DNA from: Minisyncoccota bacterium
GTDB taxonomy: Bacteria; Patescibacteriota; Minisyncoccia; Phycocordibacterales; UBA2100
NCBI GenBank assembly: GCA_035708165.1
Contig: DASSSZ010000005.1
Coordinates: forward strand, 112,840 to 176,839
Reading direction: 5' to 3'
Length of the DNA: 64,000 nucleotides
Shown: positions 7,544-13,607 of the stretch, one piece after another
Numbering within the stretch: position 1 is the stretch's first letter
How the letters are laid out: each line of letters begins with the position of its first letter
Made by a program: the position numbers and the translations under genes
Notes under the pieces: generated by a model
What the model saw: only the letters and a program-made list of their open reading frames with translations
What the model was told of the DNA's origin: nothing
Database searches by the model: none

Positions 7544-8389
7544 ATGCATGCACGTGCACTGTCATGCTGCCGGATCATCCTGGCATGCTTCGCGATTGCC
7601 ATAACCGCCCCTTCGGCGGCTATCGCTGCACAGCCCGCGGACGGGCTCGGCAGCGCGGTCGCGGTGACGGTCCCGTTCGCGGCAGCGCCGGGGGATATCA
7701 TCGCGTACGACGATGCGAGCGGCGCATACCGCCTCGCGCAGGAAGGTGACAGCGCCATCGCGGGCGTAGCTGTCGCGGATCCGCCCATCGTGCTCTTCAG
7801 CGGCACCGCAGCGAGCGGGACGCCGATCACGCGAAGCGGCAGCGTGCCGGTGCTGGTCTCGCTCGAGAATGGCCCGATCGCGGAAGGAGATGGCATCGCG
7901 ATCTCATCCGTCCCGGGCATCGGCATGCGAGCCGGCGCCTCGAGCAGCGCGGCAGTCGGCACTGCGCAGGAAGCGTTCGACGGGACGGATGCGACGGGCA
8001 CGCTCGCGATCGGCGGCCGCGCCGTGCCGGAAGACGCGATCAGCGTCATGCTCGCGGAGGCAGGTCCGGGCGCAGGCGGCGACGAGGGAGAAGGAGGCAT
8101 CGCCTGCACCGCTGGCGCGACCGCGTGCGCGATCATGGCGAAGATCAATGCTGCGCCGCTTGTCGCGCTGGTGCGCTACCTGCTCGCCGCCGCGCTCGCG
8201 TTCGGCTCGCTCTTCGTGGCCTTCCGGATCTTCGTCGCGAATGCGATCAACGGCATCGTCTCGATCGGGCGCAACCCGCTCGCCAAAGGCGCGATCCAGG
8301 CGATGATCATCCTCAACGCCGTGCTCGCAGCGTTCATCATGGTCGCGGGCGTCGGGGCGGGTATCGCCATCCTGCTCGTCCAGGCATGA
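7544..8389 (+). CDS. secreted/membrane protein with a C-terminal hairpin resembling ATP synthase subunit c (no carboxylate)
   Basis: Signal peptide MHARALSCCRIILACFAIAITAPSAAIAA is followed by an Ala/Gly-rich domain. The C-terminal two helices ...SIGRNPLAKGAIQAMIILNAVLAAFIMVAGVGAG resemble the c-subunit loop ARQPExKG...AVAE. The position that should hold the ion-binding Glu/Asp is Ala. The gene sits immediately upstream of atpF. Confidence 0.5.
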   Translation: MHARALSCCRIILACFAIAITAPSAAIAAQPADGLGSAVAVTVPFAAAPGDIIAYDDASGAYRLAQEGDSAIAGVAVADPPIVLFSGTAASGTPITRSGSVPVLVSLENGPIAEGDGIAISSVPGIGMRAGASSSAAVGTAQEAFDGTDATGTLAIGGRAVPEDAISVMLAEAGPGAGGDEGEGGIACTAGATACAIMAKINAAPLVALVRYLLAAALAFGSLFVAFRIFVANAINGIVSIGRNPLAKGAIQAMIILNAVLAAFIMVAGVGAGIAILLVQA

Positions 8390-8396
8390 CGCCCGC

Positions 8397-9080
8397 GTGC
8401 TAGCATATCCACGTATGATCCCTCTCGTCCTCTTCGCGATCGCCTCACTCGCTGTCCTGCTCATCGCGGCGGCGCTCGCGCTTGCGGCATACGCGTGGCT
8501 GCGCGGCCGGGGGGACGCGGCGCTCGCAAAGGAGGATGCGCGCCTGCGGGCCGAGCGCGAGGCGGCGGGCATCGTCGCGCATGCCGAGGACGAAGCGCGC
8601 GACCTCATGGGCGAGGCGCAGGAGGCGAGCATGCGGCTCGCATCCGCCCGCGCGTCTGAGGATGAGAAGGCGGCGCGCGCGTTCGAGGCGCGCTTCGATG
8701 CGCTCCTCGCGAAGCTCGAAGCCAGGCTCGATGCCACGGGCGAGGCGATCGCCGCGGCCGAGCAGCACGCGAGCGCCGAGGCCCTCGCGCGGCTCAAGGC
8801 ATCCGGCGAGACGGCACAGGCGCATCTCGAGGAGGCGCTTGCCGCGCTCGGGAAGGATGCATCCGCGCGGATCGAGACGGAGGTGGCGCAGGCGTTCTCA
8901 GCCGCGCGCGACGCAGCGGCGCAGTACGTCGCAGCGCGCACCGCGGCCGTGGATGCGCAGATAGGCGCGCTCATCAGCGAGACAGTGAAGGCGGTCCTCG
9001 GGAAAGACATGCCCGAGTCACTGACGGTCGAACTCGCGCAGAAGGCGCTCGAGGAGGCGAAAGCAGCGCATGTCTTCTAA
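8397..9080 (+). CDS. atpF: F0F1 ATP synthase subunit b-like
   Basis: One N-terminal TM helix followed by a long Ala/Glu/Arg-rich helix. Position is at the head of the atp cluster. Confidence 0.6.
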   Translation: MLAYPRMIPLVLFAIASLAVLLIAAALALAAYAWLRGRGDAALAKEDARLRAEREAAGIVAHAEDEARDLMGEAQEASMRLASARASEDEKAARAFEARFDALLAKLEARLDATGEAIAAAEQHASAEALARLKASGETAQAHLEEALAALGKDASARIETEVAQAFSAARDAAAQYVAARTAAVDAQIGALISETVKAVLGKDMPESLTVELAQKALEEAKAAHVF

Positions 9081-9570
9081 GAAGGAGGAGGTGGGAGCCG
9101 ATGCGCTGCTCGCGTCTCTCATCGCGAGCGCGTACACGCTGACGGATGCGCACGCCTGCATCCGCGCGCTTGCGGATGCCGTCGAGCGATCCCGTTTCGG
9201 CGCCGCTGCAGAAGACGCGGCGCGGGCTGCGCTGCCGTGGGGTGCCGCGACTATGCACGCGCTCGCGGGAGGGGAGGACGCGCACGATACGCTCACGGAG
9301 CTTGCGCGCAGGGCAGACGCCCTGCCAGTCCTGGTGCTCTATGTCCCGGCCGCGCTTTCTGCCGCCGGGGTCGAGCGCCTCGGCCGATGGTGCCGAGCGA
9401 ACATCGATCCGTCCCTCATGCTCTCGCTGCATACCGATCCCGCGGCGGCAGGCGGCTGCATCTTCGCTTGGCAGGATCATCTGCATGATTTCTCGCTCAG
9501 CTACTTCCTCGCGAAGGAGCGCGATGCCTTCTCGCGCGTGCTTGCAGCGCACGCCCCGGCTGTCGTATGA
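9070..9570 (+). CDS. atpH: F0F1 ATP synthase subunit delta-like (divergent)
   Basis: 166-aa helical protein between atpF and atpA, overlapping both neighbours by a few nt. The call rests on synteny. Confidence 0.5.
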   Translation: MSSKKEEVGADALLASLIASAYTLTDAHACIRALADAVERSRFGAAAEDAARAALPWGAATMHALAGGEDAHDTLTELARRADALPVLVLYVPAALSAAGVERLGRWCRANIDPSLMLSLHTDPAAAGGCIFAWQDHLHDFSLSYFLAKERDAFSRVLAAHAPAVV

Positions 9571-11030: not shown

Positions 11031-11923
11031 CCGATCTCACGCGCCTCCTCGCGGAGTACCAGGCTGCCGATGCTGCGGCCGGCTCGCTCGAGGACATTAC
11101 GGCGCTGCGCACGCGGGCCATCCGCCGCGCGTTCGAGAAGAACGCAGCCTTCTTCGCCGACATCCGCGCCCTCTACGACATCGTGAGCGCGCAGCCGCGG
11201 GATCCCGCGCGCGCCGAGGCGGCTGATGCGCCGACCCGGACGCTCTTCGTCGCGCTCACCTCGAACCGGCGCTTCTTCAGCGGGCTCATCAGCCGCATCA
11301 TCGAGAAGCTCCGCGAGGAGCTCGCGAACGAGCCGGATGCCGAGGCCGTTGTCATTGGCTCGGTCGGCTGGGAGTTCTGCGAGGAAACAGGCGTTCCCGC
11401 GCGTGCGCGCTACATGCCGTTCGCCGATGATACGCCGACACCGGAAGAGCTCGCATCGCTCGTCGGAACGTTCGCCGGATTCGGGCGCGTCGTCATCCTG
11501 CACCCTGCGTTCGTGAACGTCTTCAGGCAGGAAGTGGCGGTCGAAGACATCACGCACTCGCCGGAGCAGCTGCCGGAACCGGCTTCCGCGGCCTTTCCTG
11601 AGGGCGTGCCCCCGCTCCCGGGCATCCCGGAGGCGGCCATCATCGCTGCGCGCACGTCAGGAGAATACATCCTCGAGCCGGATGCTACGGCGCTGCTCGG
11701 CTTCTTCGATACGCAAGTCCGGCACGTGCTCTTCGACCGCGTGCTGCTCGAATCCGATCTCGCGCGCACCGCTGCGCGCCTCATGCGTCTCACCGAAGCG
11801 CAATCCCGCGCTCGCGCGCTCGTCGATGAGACAAGGCGCGCTATGATACGGGCATCGGCAGCACGCGCGAGCAGGGAACTCCTCGAGACATTCGCCGGCC
11901 TCGCCGCATGGAACCGCTCATGA
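11018..11923 (+). CDS. atpG: F0F1 ATP synthase subunit gamma-like
   Basis: 301-aa protein between the alpha and beta genes with N- and C-terminal helical segments. The call rests on synteny. Confidence 0.6.
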
Positions 11924-13335
11924 CCACGACCGCCAGTACCCGTTCCGACAAAGCTGCCCTGCCGCGGGTCGGCTCCGTGCGCCGCGTCGTCGGGCAGATC
12001 GTCGGCGTCGAGTGCGACGGCGACTACCGCCCGGAGCTCGGCGAGCTGCTCCATGCCGCAGACGACCCATCGGTCCGGCTCGAAGCGCATGCGTACCGCG
12101 GCGAGCGGATGCTCTACTGCCTGCTGCACTCCTCTGGCGACAAGCTTGCGCGCGGCTCGGCGATCGTGACCACCGAAGCGCGCATCACCGTGCCGGCAGG
12201 TTCGGCGCTCCTGGGACGCGCGATCGACCTCTATGGCGACCCGGCGGACGGCGGCGGCCCGATCGGCGAAGCGGCTCTGCGCTCGATCTACGCCGTGCCG
12301 GACACGGCGCGCGGGCTCGCCCCCCTCGGCGACGTCCTCGATACAGGCATCAAGGCGGTCGATTTCTTCGCGCCGATCCAGAAAGGCGGCAAGGCAGCGC
12401 TCGTCGGCGGCGCCGGGGTGGGGAAGACCGTGCTCCAGACGGAGCTGCTCCGCAACCTCCTCACCGTCACTAACGGCGTCTCGGTCTTCGCCGGCATCGG
12501 CGAGCGCGTCCGCGAAGGCCGTGATCTCTACGACGACCTCGGGAAGCAGGGCGTCCGTGACCGAACCGCCATGGTCTTCGGCTATATCAATACGAATGCT
12601 GCGGTGCGCTTCCGCACCGCCGCCGCTGCTGCAGCGCTCGCGGAGCATTTCCGCGATGAAGAGCGGCAGGATGTGCTCCTGTTCGTGGATAACGTCTTCC
12701 GCTTCCTGCAGGCAGGCAGCGAGCTCGCCACGCTCCTCGGCGAGATCCCGTCCGAGTACGGGTACCAGGCGACGCTCGAGAGCGAGATCGCGCAGTTCGA
12801 GAACCGCCTCGTCTCGACGGCGCAGGGCAGCATCACTTCGATCCAGGCGCTCTACGTGCCGGTCGATGAGCTTGATAACCCGGCAGTCGTCGCGACGCTC
12901 GACCATATGGATACGACCATCATCCTCTCGCGCGAGATGGCGCAGCAAGGGCGCCACCCGGCGATCGATCCCTTGCGCTCGACATCGCGCGCGATCCACC
13001 CGGATGTCGTCGGGCCCGAGCACTACGCGGCAGTGACAGATGCTGCCGCGCTCCTCAACCAGTACGACCGGCTCGCGCGCATCGTGGCTGTCGTGGGCGA
13101 AGAGGAGCTCGCGCCGCAGAACCGCCAGGTCTTCCGCCGCGCCGAGCTGCTACTCGCATACCTGACGCAGTCGCTCTTCGTCACGGCAGCGACCGACGGC
13201 CGCACCGGCGTCTCGGTCGCGCGCGCAGATACCGTGCGCGACGTGCGCGCCATCCTCGATGGCTCGCTCGATGCAGCGGAGCCCGAGAAGCTGCGCTTCA
13301 TCGGCGATCTCGCAAGCGCCGGGCTCCTGCCATGA
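11908..13335 (+). CDS. atpD: F0F1 ATP synthase subunit beta
   Basis: Canonical [10 protein letters not shown] Walker A and the DELSEED-region equivalent. 475 aa. Confidence 0.9.
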
Positions 13336-13607
13336 GCGAGCAGGCGCGTCGCGAGCGGCTCGCGGTCATCATCCAGACGCCGGAGCGGATCATCTGGGAG
13401 GGGGAAGCGGATGCGGTTTCCTCGCAGAATGCCGCCGGGCCGTTCGATATCCTTCCTGAGCACGCGAATCTCATCACGCTGATCGAACGCGTGCCGATCG
13501 TCGTCCTGACCGGCAAAGCGACGCAGCAGTACTCCTTCGATCGCGCGCTCCTGCACGCCGCGGACGGGAACGTGACGGTCTATGGCGATATCGCGGAAAA
13601 CGCGTAG
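13332..13607 (+). CDS. atpC: F0F1 ATP synthase subunit epsilon
   Basis: 91-aa beta-sandwich-type sequence ([14 protein letters not shown]...GPFDILPEH...) overlapping the atpD stop. Confidence 0.7.

Follow-up and report, generated by a model that had tools for sequence, protein, structure and literature searches.

The window, the whole 64,000-nucleotide stretch analysed here, encodes at positions 7544-13607 (+ strand, as are all features below) a c-subunit fusion protein that we call c*, followed by b, delta, alpha, gamma, beta and a short epsilon. From sequence relationships, this cluster is best explained as a derived form of the F-type ATPase that occurs across Patescibacteria. The ion-binding carboxylate has been lost across the whole c* family, and the 64-kb window contains no a-like or canonical c-like ORF. 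We consider it moderately likely that the cluster specifies a rotary motor, driven by ATP hydrolysis, that transports no ions, bears an extracellular crown and is analogous to the Mycoplasma F1-like X0 ATPases. If so, many ultra-small CPR bacteria would burn ATP for work at the cell surface, not for ATP synthesis or ion pumping. A sequence-only reading of this DNA had already described a canonical gene order with neither atpB nor atpE in cis; both points held, and every ORF it had listed was found in its place.

The c* protein and its hairpin

The c* gene (7544-8389) lies at the atpE position, directly before b-delta-alpha-gamma-beta-epsilon, and this operon position is conserved. It encodes 281 residues comprising a signal peptide, an extracellular beta domain, a linker and a c-subunit hairpin; the product matches, at 100% identity, a protein annotated as hypothetical by NCBI in a Candidatus Paceibacterota MAG and had no hit in NCBIfam. 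The predicted signal peptide covers residues 1-29 (7544-7630), with a predicted cleavage site near AIAA/Q. In the AF2 model, which is of the monomer, residues 2-21 form a helix, and the family as a whole shows a hydrophobic N-terminus with a conserved A-Q. These features fit the signal peptide proposed earlier, which is probably cleaved. Most relatives also carry a conserved Cys pair in the beta domain, which together with the signal peptide would place this domain outside the cytoplasm.

The beta domain (residues about 36-160; 7649-8023) comprises ~125 residues and is confidently folded (pLDDT about 90), with a fold like that of phage cement proteins and the phi29 gp12 C-terminus. Matches were to phage cement/decoration proteins and the C-terminal auto-chaperone domain of phi29 gp12 (3gqh, 9ocb, 5wk1, 8qsy), with sequence identities of 12-16%; the gp12 domain was the best structural match. 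The Pfam models XM1_gp53_minor_capsid, Phage_cement_2 and Peptidase_G2 all remained below threshold. Whereas the phage counterparts are virion proteins, the domain here belongs to a cellular ATPase, joined to its membrane rotor subunit. It is followed by a disordered Gly/Ala/Glu-rich linker of ~28 residues (162-189; 8027-8110; pLDDT <50), longer than that of most relatives. The "~200-aa Ala/Gly-rich domain" of the sequence-only reading is therefore to be replaced by a folded beta domain and a disordered linker.

The hairpin (8150-8377) consists of helix 1 (residues 203-243) and helix 2 (residues 245-278). With hhalign, it aligned to seven canonical c subunits over 69 ungapped columns (P 1e-5 to 4e-6, probability 82-87%), and its score of 32.1 clearly exceeded that of 60 column-shuffled controls (9.8 +/- 1.8, maximum 15.7). 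A c-subunit HMM run across 86 loci matched the fusion ORFs only, several c* homologues carry the JGI label COG0636, and Pfam ATP-synt_C gave sub-threshold matches in 16 of 87 family members (best E 0.037). This sequence evidence is moderate; together with the atpE position, it identifies the hairpin as a true homologue of subunit c and not, as had been suggested, a mimic. The cytoplasmic loop GRNP (8267-8278), invariant in 87/87 aligned homologues, falls without gaps on the ARQP loop of c subunits, as had been noticed, and is equivalent to the R41-Q42-P43 loop of E. coli c that docks gamma/epsilon.

The alignment likewise bore out the reported Ala at the position of the essential Asp/Glu, since Ala263 (codon 8330-8332) aligns with E. 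coli Asp61. Among 344 unique hairpins this position is occupied by I, V, L, A, F, G, T, S or M, and by D or E in none (0/344). Nor did the aligned homologous hairpins contain a conserved acidic residue at mid-membrane level, in helix 1 or helix 2, that could represent a relocated carboxylate. A survey of relatives had been proposed for both the fusion and the substitution; the fusion is far from unique. Its family comprises about 1,200 clusters at 50% identity (1,178 at E<=1e-30), the operon was recorded in at least 80 species of Patescibacteria, chiefly Microgenomates, and the machine in at least 187 GTDB species. Complete genomes with the operon include OZ246394.1, OZ246419.1, JBAZXP010000001.1 and JAQTZF010000001.1. 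In these homology searches the fusion emerged as the c subunit of an extensive family within Patescibacteria and no oddity of the source genome. The 1,178 clusters in at least 187 species, the invariant GRNP, the intact beta motifs and the retention of b and delta argue that the machine is under selection and not decaying.

The F1 head, the stalk and subunit a

Pfam readily identified the head subunits. The alpha subunit (9567-11030; PF00006, 8e-50), gamma (11018-11923; PF00231, 9e-19) and beta (11908-13335; PF00006, 1e-61) all scored below the curated NCBIfam equivalog cut-offs, alpha lying well under those of the atpA models and beta slightly under that of TIGR01039 atpD (426 bits against 463). 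The public gene call for beta starts at 11920. All beta catalytic motifs checked are present, including YVPVDE, and the perfect Walker A GGAGVGKT described earlier was confirmed at 12406-12429. Alpha retains its Arg-finger motif SITRVG and has a shortened N-terminus, with only about 12 residues before the beta-barrel compared with 26 in E. coli. Its degenerate Walker A, GGAPGSKAS (10023-10049), had been presented as a feature of this ATPase. The motif is real, but it is an outlier: most relatives carry GDRKTGKT, with GEPRSGKE, GDARSGK[GMQ] and similar forms in one subclade, so that the degeneracy is specific to a lineage and not a trait of the family.

The atpF and atpH ORFs, searched singly, gave no match in Pfam or NCBIfam, and profiles built from 28 orthologues each were used for their assignment. 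The b-like peripheral-stalk subunit (8397-9080; the public gene call begins at the alternative start 8415) has one N-terminal TM helix and a long Ala-rich helix, and its profile had ATP synthase subunit b (9itj_U, 8e-8) as top PDB hit. A one-TM ORF of about 235 residues occupies this position in about 75 loci. The delta/OSCP-like subunit (9070-9570) matched the delta/OSCP C-terminal domain in the solved structure 6yy0_S (1.9e-7), and its orthologues share the consensus DPxxxGGAxIxxxGxYxDxSL, which we take to resemble the motif of that domain. The genes for b and delta are both missing in four related loci. The epsilon subunit (13332-13607; 91 aa) consists of the N-terminal beta-sandwich only (PF02823, 2e-10, residues 11-85), without the C-terminal helical domain, and its orthologues are likewise short (77-89 aa as annotated genes and 83-146 aa as stop-to-stop ORFs). 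Since such an epsilon has no inhibitory C-terminal helices, its sequence makes ATP hydrolysis plausible as the working mode.

The search for subunit a covered the 64 kb of the source genome and at most 10 kb per side in other genomes. No a-like gene was found within 10 kb of the operon in the 80 Patescibacteria species. In the set of 86 loci (the window, 80 species loci including flanks of at most 10 kb, and five metagenome contigs), an a-subunit motif search and a search with E. coli AtpB returned nothing, both being weak tests as they used one motif and one sequence, and there was no conserved family of multi-TM ORFs. The fusion fills the atpE position in a highly conserved operon, which makes it less likely that atpB and atpE are encoded elsewhere in the genome; subunit a is probably absent genome-wide.

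Neighbouring giant proteins and known ATPases

Downstream of epsilon lies the gene of a giant membrane-anchored surface protein (13582-19011; public gene call from 13663), a possible functional partner placed with the operon by synteny only. It has a short cytoplasmic tail and a single TM helix, and its Pfam domains are BNR/sortilin propellers, a Peptidase_S74 chaperone domain and an Ig-like domain. Members of one related family of giant membrane-anchored fibre proteins stand beside the operon at 46 of the 65 related loci. The window protein is distantly similar to this family, falling outside its cluster at a stringent threshold, and resembles operon-adjacent giants of other genomes in its juxtamembrane residues 133-220 and its S74 region. 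Eight giant fibre proteins share the beta domain with c*, and in L075 a Peptidase_G2 IMC overlaps this domain. The synteny reflects shared ancestry, and an interaction is possible.

The E. coli F1Fo operon (atpIBEFHAGDC, L086) shares with the window the gene order c-b-delta-alpha-gamma-beta-epsilon, homologous alpha, beta, gamma, epsilon, b and delta subunits, a c hairpin with an R-x-P loop and the beta catalytic motifs. The window differs in having no a in cis, a c* without Asp/Glu and without the GxGxGxG motif of helix 1, an added signal peptide and ~125-aa ectodomain, an epsilon without C-terminal domain and a shortened alpha N-terminal helix. Carboxylate-free hairpins also occur in A. woodii c1 and V-type proteolipid rings, where they stand beside carboxylate-bearing ones in the same ring; in contrast, all c* copies lack the carboxylate, carry an ectodomain and have no subunit a. 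In N-ATPases, subunit a persists alongside a Na+-type c that bears the carboxylate, and AtpQ and AtpR are added; none of these was seen in the window. The NCBIfam alt_F1F0 models for this divergent, laterally mobile F-type operon (PMC2881411) match the window alpha, beta and epsilon with scores far beneath their cut-offs. The ProAD survey recorded "non-catalytic" c/K subunits, which like c* are c-type hairpins without the ion-binding Glu/Asp, in just 20 F/N cases, against totals of 37,169 F-type and 1,807 N-type enzymes; a subunit a was required by the survey (PMC11738941).

The closest functional analogues may be the Mycoplasma F1-like X0 ATPases (Type 2/Type 3; the M. mobile gliding motor and the MIB-MIP-associated ATPase), which power surface functions (PMC3369863, PMC12994834, PMC11864180). 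Both they and the window have an F1-like alpha/beta/gamma/epsilon head, no recognisable a/c ion machinery, an alpha N-terminal helix that is missing or shortened and an ATP hydrolysis thought to serve the cell surface. The window nevertheless keeps b and delta, its two-TM element is a c-subunit hairpin, and it has no 12-TM protein. Ordinary atpA/atpD models score its alpha and beta above MSC_0618/0619 or glide_MMOB1660/1670, which stay below their cut-offs. Given its Patescibacteria lineage, its origin is independent of the Mycoplasma systems. The searchable literature gave no earlier account of such a c* ATPase.

The proposed motor and alternative explanations

In the machine that we propose, beta would hydrolyse ATP and turn gamma-epsilon, which in turn would rotate a membrane-embedded c* ring. 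The ring would move no ion, since it has neither a protonatable or Na+-binding site nor a-subunit half-channels. The mechanical output would be rotation of, or torque on, a beta-domain crown outside the membrane, which probably acts on or with the operon-adjacent giant fibre proteins. An extracellular output is made plausible by the ectodomain topology, by the domain shared with the giants and by their synteny. The sequence-only reading had offered a non-translocating membrane anchor or an ATPase used in hydrolysis or regulation only; the uniform carboxylate loss, the lack of an a-like gene within 10 kb and the short epsilon are consistent with this, which leaves its interpretation partly supported as a whole.

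Whether the ring turns at all bears on a reading in which c* is a membrane anchor or scaffold without productive rotation, F1 a tethered, regulated ATP hydrolase or nucleotide sensor, and the ectodomain a stabilising or localising crown. We regard this as unlikely. No subunit a would hold the b stalk of the stator against the ring, the delta-binding helix of alpha is shortened, this lineage has relaxed nucleotide-site residues in alpha, four loci do without b and delta, and phage cement-like domains are stabilisers; however, without rotary coupling it is difficult to account for the retention of gamma, epsilon, b, delta, intact beta catalysis and an invariant rotor-docking loop in ~1,200 clusters, and hydrolysing ATP to no purpose would weigh heavily on organisms reliant on fermentation. 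It is decidedly unlikely that the enzyme is an ordinary ion-translocating ATP synthase/ATPase with canonical atpB/atpE elsewhere and c* as an accessory or minor ring component, although rotor rings can tolerate some carboxylate-free hairpins, as in A. woodii and V-type rings. In at least 80 species the atpE slot is taken precisely by c*, and their loci contain neither an a gene nor a canonical c gene within 10 kb; the invariant GRNP argues that c* itself docks gamma/epsilon, and a split of a and c plus insertion of a c paralogue would need upkeep across many candidate phyla. What speaks for an ordinary enzyme is one survey that calls a complete F-type ATPase "usually the norm" in freshwater CPR (PMC9166423). 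ProAD reported incomplete subunit sets in many genomes, and ascribed genomes without detectable rotary-ATPase genes, especially in Patescibacteria, to genome incompleteness (PMC11738941), a pattern that also fits a subunit undetected because it is really absent.

The neighbouring giants suggest yet another use, an ATP-driven, FliI/FliJ-like (type III export) machine that exports or assembles them, with the c* ring as conduit or platform and the beta domain, in the manner of an intramolecular chaperone, aiding trimerisation of the fibres. This agrees with their frequent position beside the operon, the beta domain borne by eight of them, the gp12 auto-chaperone match with the Peptidase_G2 IMC overlap, and the fact that alpha and beta score against FliI/SctN models. 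We nonetheless consider it quite improbable: F1 models fit alpha and beta far better than FliI/SctN, the giants bear an N-terminal TM anchor of their own and can be exported through Sec, the lumen of canonical c-rings is plugged by lipid, and no export-gate homologue was found in the operon loci. Hardly credible is a functionless remnant of an ATP synthase decaying in a reduced genome, which would account for the loss of subunit a and the carboxylate, the scores of alpha, beta and gamma under the NCBIfam cut-offs and the alpha P-loop of the source genome. Against it, every ORF is intact, conservation is strong and patterned over ~1,200 clusters and at least 187 species, and the GRNP loop, the beta catalytic motifs and the gene order have all been preserved.

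Operon organization and the F1 and stalk subunits

Seven ATPase genes, all on the + strand, are packed tightly in the window, whose GC content is ~67%. A 281-aa fusion protein occupying the atpE slot (c*, 7544-8389) is followed by b-like (8397-9080, 227 aa), delta-like (9070-9570, 166 aa), alpha (9567-11030, 487 aa), gamma (11018-11923, 301 aa), beta (11908-13335, 475 aa) and epsilon (13332-13607, 91 aa) genes, and a FAD monooxygenase gene (6230-7549, - strand) diverges from the operon on its upstream side. A Pfam scan assigned PF00006 to both alpha and beta, PF00231 to gamma (9e-19) and PF02823 to epsilon (2e-10, N-domain only). 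The NCBIfam equivalogs atpA, atpD, atpG and atpC all matched, each under its own cut-off (atpD against beta, 426 bits with a cut-off of 463; atpA against alpha, 251 with a cut-off of 484), and the F1 part is therefore divergent. The b-like and delta-like proteins as single sequences had no Pfam or NCBIfam match; profiles built from 28 positional orthologues matched solved structures of subunit b (8e-8) and of the delta/OSCP C-terminal domain (1.9e-7). With the subunits identified in this way, the order atpF-H-A-G-D-C given by the sequence-only reading is correct.

Beta retains the intact P-loop GGAGVGKT, as had been read from the sequence, together with the catalytic GERVREG, the Walker B DNVFRF and the adenine-site Tyr, and alpha keeps the Arg-finger motif SITRVG. 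Epsilon consists of the beta-sandwich alone, without the C-terminal helices, which in bacteria inhibit hydrolysis. Only ~12 residues precede the beta-barrel of alpha, compared with 26 in E. coli, so that the delta-binding helix is shortened. The degenerate alpha P-loop noticed earlier is real (GGAPGSKAS, 10023-10049), but it is an outlier, since most relatives carry GDRKTGKT, and it cannot serve to define the system. Among the alpha genes of the window and the related loci L006-L085, those of the subclade closest to the window have A, E, G, M, Q or S in place of the Walker A Mg-ligand Thr, suggesting that nucleotide binding at the non-catalytic sites is dispensable there; the degenerate P-loop reflects relaxation of the non-catalytic site in this lineage. 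An apparent second alpha in one related locus (L080) was dropped after its translation was read as what we take to be Rho.

The operon is widespread. A profile of the fusion protein retrieved 1,178 clusters at E<=1e-30 (50% identity representatives), nearly all of 250-290 aa and matched over their full length, with named members from Woesebacteria, Microgenomates and Patescibacteria. At least 187 loci were confirmed in GTDB contigs (one genome per species) with one restrictive peptide pattern, so the survey of relatives proposed earlier reveals a large conserved family. The 80 species loci that we fetched include Gottesman-, Ames-, Davies-, Woese-, Levy-, Roizman-, Pace- and Sungbacteria, and essentially every locus that is long enough has the order c*, one-TM b (~235 aa), delta (~160 aa), alpha, gamma, beta and short epsilon.

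The c* protein and the loss of the ion-binding residue

The c* product is 100% identical to the NCBI 'hypothetical protein VFL98_03230' of a Candidatus Paceibacterota MAG. With 87 homologues as input, AlphaFold2 gave a model (mean pLDDT 81.7) that begins with a hydrophobic helix (residues 2-21, ending AIAA|Q), continues with an all-beta domain (~36-160, pLDDT ~90), a disordered linker (162-189) and a short helix, and closes with a helical hairpin of 40+34 residues (203-243 and 245-278). As a single sequence c* matched nothing in Pfam or NCBIfam, and phmmer with the hairpin found no match among PDB sequences; profiles and fold comparison were therefore needed. Aligned with seven canonical c subunits, the hairpin runs gap-free and GRNP falls on the ARQP of the polar loop, as the sequence-only reading had placed it, with hhalign P values of 4e-6 to 1e-5. 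The score of 32.1 compares with 9.8 +/- 1.8 (maximum 15.7) for 60 column-shuffled profiles, and the c-subunit likeness suspected for the C-terminus thus extends to profile similarity. When a crude HMM made from these seven c subunits was run over 13,205 ORFs from 86 loci (the window, the 80 fetched loci and five metagenome contigs), the top 34 matches were all fusion ORFs (best 3.8e-5) and no canonical c-like ORF appeared. Several c* homologues are also labelled COG0636 c/K subunit by JGI. Moderate profile statistics, backed by the structure, the synteny and the controls, identify the hairpin as a c subunit, and it has the two helices and polar R-x-P loop of the F-type. Within the loop G-R-N-P-x-A is invariant in 87/87 aligned homologues; in known enzymes the cytoplasmic loop of c is the docking site of gamma and epsilon. 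The predicted topology, with a signal peptide, the domain outside, the loop inside and the C-terminus outside, is the one expected of a bacterial c subunit extended into the periplasm at its N-terminus. A lipoprotein signal in c* (ILAC) was considered and dropped as non-canonical and not conserved.

Despite this overall likeness, the residue that would bind the ion is missing. The column of E. coli Asp61 is Ala263 in c*, exactly as had been noted from the sequence. Among relatives the loss holds throughout, with neither Asp nor Glu at this column in 344 non-identical hairpins; the 87 aligned homologues have mostly Ile (I65 V8 L8 A3 G1 T1). Relocation of the carboxylate to helix 1, known from the E. 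coli A24D/D61N mutant, is ruled out because Gly226 occupies the position of E. coli residue 24 and the membrane core of helix 1 contains no acid. Indeed, no conserved acidic residue lies in the membrane core of either c* helix, so the ion-binding Asp or Glu that marks F-type c subunits is found in neither helix 2 nor helix 1, and the residues equivalent to Na+-site positions are hydrophobic.

Outside the membrane, c* carries a folded beta domain and a short linker in the AlphaFold2 model, which rules out a low-complexity reading of the ~200-aa Ala/Gly-rich domain described earlier. The beta fold of this ectodomain is the one common to capsid decoration proteins and the phi29 gp12 C-terminal domain, with which Foldseek agrees. 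Weak matches to XM1_gp53_minor_capsid and Phage_cement_2 occurred in 14 and 5 of 87 relatives (best E 0.003 and 0.006, below threshold); the window c* had no Pfam match to either, or to Peptidase_G2. A Cys pair in the ectodomain is conserved in most relatives (>=90% of the family, alignment A3) and is absent from the window c* (residues 54 and 64; window 7700-7735) and its closest relatives, which also have IVSIGRNP where the family has IEAIGRNP. By these sequence marks, the window c* appears to belong to a divergent branch of the family.

Subunit a, surface proteins and the possible function of the complex

No a-like ORF was found in the 64-kb window by its Arg-Asn motif, by phmmer with E. 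coli AtpB or when all ORFs with two or more TM helices were looked through. The multi-TM genes in the window encode the pilus PilC, a prepilin peptidase, a putative FtsX (from a look at its sequence) and a 140-aa four-TM protein. Across the 13,205 ORFs of the 86 loci, simple searches with a motif regex and E. coli AtpB phmmer gave no match to subunit a, and clustering of ORFs with at least four TM helices in the neighbourhoods of the loci yielded no conserved family; from their sequences, we take the multi-TM candidates to be ComEC-like, CPBP-like or shadow ORFs. Together with the c-subunit HMM, these searches bear out the earlier remark that atpB and atpE are absent in cis; copies of either may lie in the genome beyond the window.

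Giant membrane-anchored surface proteins accompany the operon. An ORF of at least 700 aa abuts it in 55/84 loci, and 51 of these 55 ORFs form one BLAST-linked family, a member of which adjoins the operon in 46/65 loci with at least 2.5 kb of upstream sequence (upstream in 35, usually divergent). The giant proteins are 700-3200 aa long and have an unusual N-terminus, a cytoplasmic MerR-type HTH or phage-integrase SAM-like domain, then one TM helix at about residue 50-200 and a long ectodomain resembling a fibre. Among those scanned, the L010 protein has collagen repeats, and others carry chaperone regions of the Peptidase_S74 or Peptidase_G2 type. Examples in related loci are L062:3661-9843(-), L076:1-9621(-), L057:2-8590(-), L045:16037-20674(+) and L010:16416-20216(+). 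A domain of the c* ectodomain type also occurs in giant proteins, and in one of them it overlaps the Pfam Peptidase_G2 IMC. In the window, the gene that immediately follows epsilon (13582-19011, + strand) encodes an 1809-aa protein combining a TM anchor with BNR/sortilin propellers, Peptidase_S74 and one Ig-like domain; this protein resembles the giant family in the juxtamembrane segment and the S74 region and falls outside the giant-protein cluster at a stringent threshold.

Among known systems, the complex has the F-type alpha3beta3 head with a catalytic beta, a gamma/epsilon central stalk and a b/delta peripheral stalk. The N-ATPase alt_F1F0 models gave 248 bits for alpha (cut-off 750), 407 for beta (752) and 13.5 for epsilon (100), and no extra small membrane genes of the AtpQ/AtpR type were found in the operon neighbourhood. 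The F1-like X0 (Type 2/3) ATPases of Mycoplasma are seven-gene clusters with a 12-TM protein and no b or delta (PMC12994834). Their alpha/beta models (MSC_0618/0619 and MMOB1660/1670) scored 158-330 bits on the window proteins, under cut-offs of 520-850, and alpha and beta score higher on the ordinary atpA and atpD models. Unlike the Mycoplasma cluster, b and delta are present here, and no multi-TM ORF is conserved in the loci. The topology of c* resembles that described for a Mycoplasma protein; since c* has no NCBIfam match, no sequence relation between the two is detectable. The c* complex parallels the F1-like X0 ATPases; it falls outside their families when tested, and the likeness is one of design, not descent.

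Taken together, the lack of a subunit a in cis, of an H+ or Na+ site on the rotor and the strong purifying conservation argue, as far as sequence goes, for a complex uncoupled from the ion gradient. It keeps the full rotor and stator of an F-type enzyme, minus subunit a in cis, with a rotor subunit unable to bind H+ or Na+. Because catalytic beta, gamma/epsilon, the rotor-docking loop and the peripheral stalk are all kept, the simplest reading would be an ATP-driven rotary device, and since the N-terminal domains of c* are placed outside the membrane, mechanical work at the cell surface is a plausible output, with the giant fibre proteins as putative partners, to which synteny points. We infer ring formation by c*, its rotation, some means of anchoring the stator in place of subunit a, and any contact made with the giant proteins. 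The observation of the sequence-only reading is confirmed and extended; its interpretation, a non-translocating membrane anchor, an ATPase serving hydrolysis or regulation only, or atpB/atpE encoded elsewhere, is supported in part. In its fullest form the rotary reading, which we consider unlikely as a whole, would have ATP hydrolysis spin a carboxylate-free c-ring whose crown drives the adjacent giant fibre proteins, giving a large part of CPR an outward rotary motor, a new surface machine for motility, host attachment or predation.

Reviews repeatedly raise the question of why an F-type ATP synthase is kept almost universally by Patescibacteria, which lack a respiratory chain, and they regard the CPR enzyme as an ordinary ATP synthase that may run in reverse (PMC11665869, PMC8080830, PMC10633639). 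One survey noted F1-only Saccharimonadia MAGs (PMC9166423). The ProAD survey put the lack of detectable rotary-ATPase genes, in Patescibacteria especially, down to genome incompleteness, and its list has just 20 F/N 'non-catalytic' c subunits (PMC11738941). Full-text literature searching turned up neither the c* fusion nor any Patescibacteria F-type ATPase described as lacking subunit a. For a large block of CPR (most Microgenomates lineages and some Parcubacteria), our results suggest the answer that the enzyme is no longer a chemiosmotic device. If so, scoring 'complex V present' from alpha/beta genes would mislead metabolic reconstructions, as would blaming genome incompleteness for missing rotary-ATPase genes (PMC11738941). 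An outward rotary motor would explain the retention of 'ATP synthase' in non-respiring CPR bacteria and would be convergent with the Mycoplasma mobile gliding motor. It would be a second independent example, after that of mycoplasmas, of an F1 motor taken over for surface work outside bioenergetics, and it would differ from the Mycoplasma one in having a recognisable transmembrane coupling element, a predicted c-ring with an ectodomain. Such a motor should show no DCCD sensitivity and no ion pumping, a decorated ring in cryo-ET and a surface phenotype dependent on beta catalysis.

Operon variants and other features of the window

The b and delta genes are absent from four loci (L011, L041, L068 and L069), where alpha directly follows c* (~7-21 kb fetched per locus); in this sublineage the peripheral stalk may therefore also have been lost or relocated. 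In one subclade c* and b are separated by an inserted gene whose product is 2,3-bisphosphoglycerate-independent phosphoglycerate mutase (~560 aa; L002:4796-6457, L005:7360-9036 and 10 more loci). A housekeeping gene of ~820 aa adjoins the operon in 13 loci, on the downstream side of epsilon in 9 and upstream of c* in 4; it is probably leuS, and its annotation in L002 is class-I tRNA synthetase. Many titles of L006-L085 read 'uncultured Gammaproteobacteria', Methylococcaceae, Sulfotelmatobacter, Nanoarchaeia or Hermodarchaeia; on contigs with a c* operon, such titles are probably wrong labels or mis-binned contigs in public MAG sets.

Elsewhere in the window, a CPR-typical type IV pilus cluster (28048-34704) encodes two T2SSE ATPases (PilB- and PilT-like), a T2SSF platform protein and a prepilin peptidase. 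Right after a tRNA gene (57570-57640), GC content falls from ~65% to 45-51%, and the segment 57570-64000, which carries genes for an SMC/AAA_21-type ATPase, a large serine recombinase and an N6/N4 DNA methylase, is probably a mobile element integrated at the tRNA.
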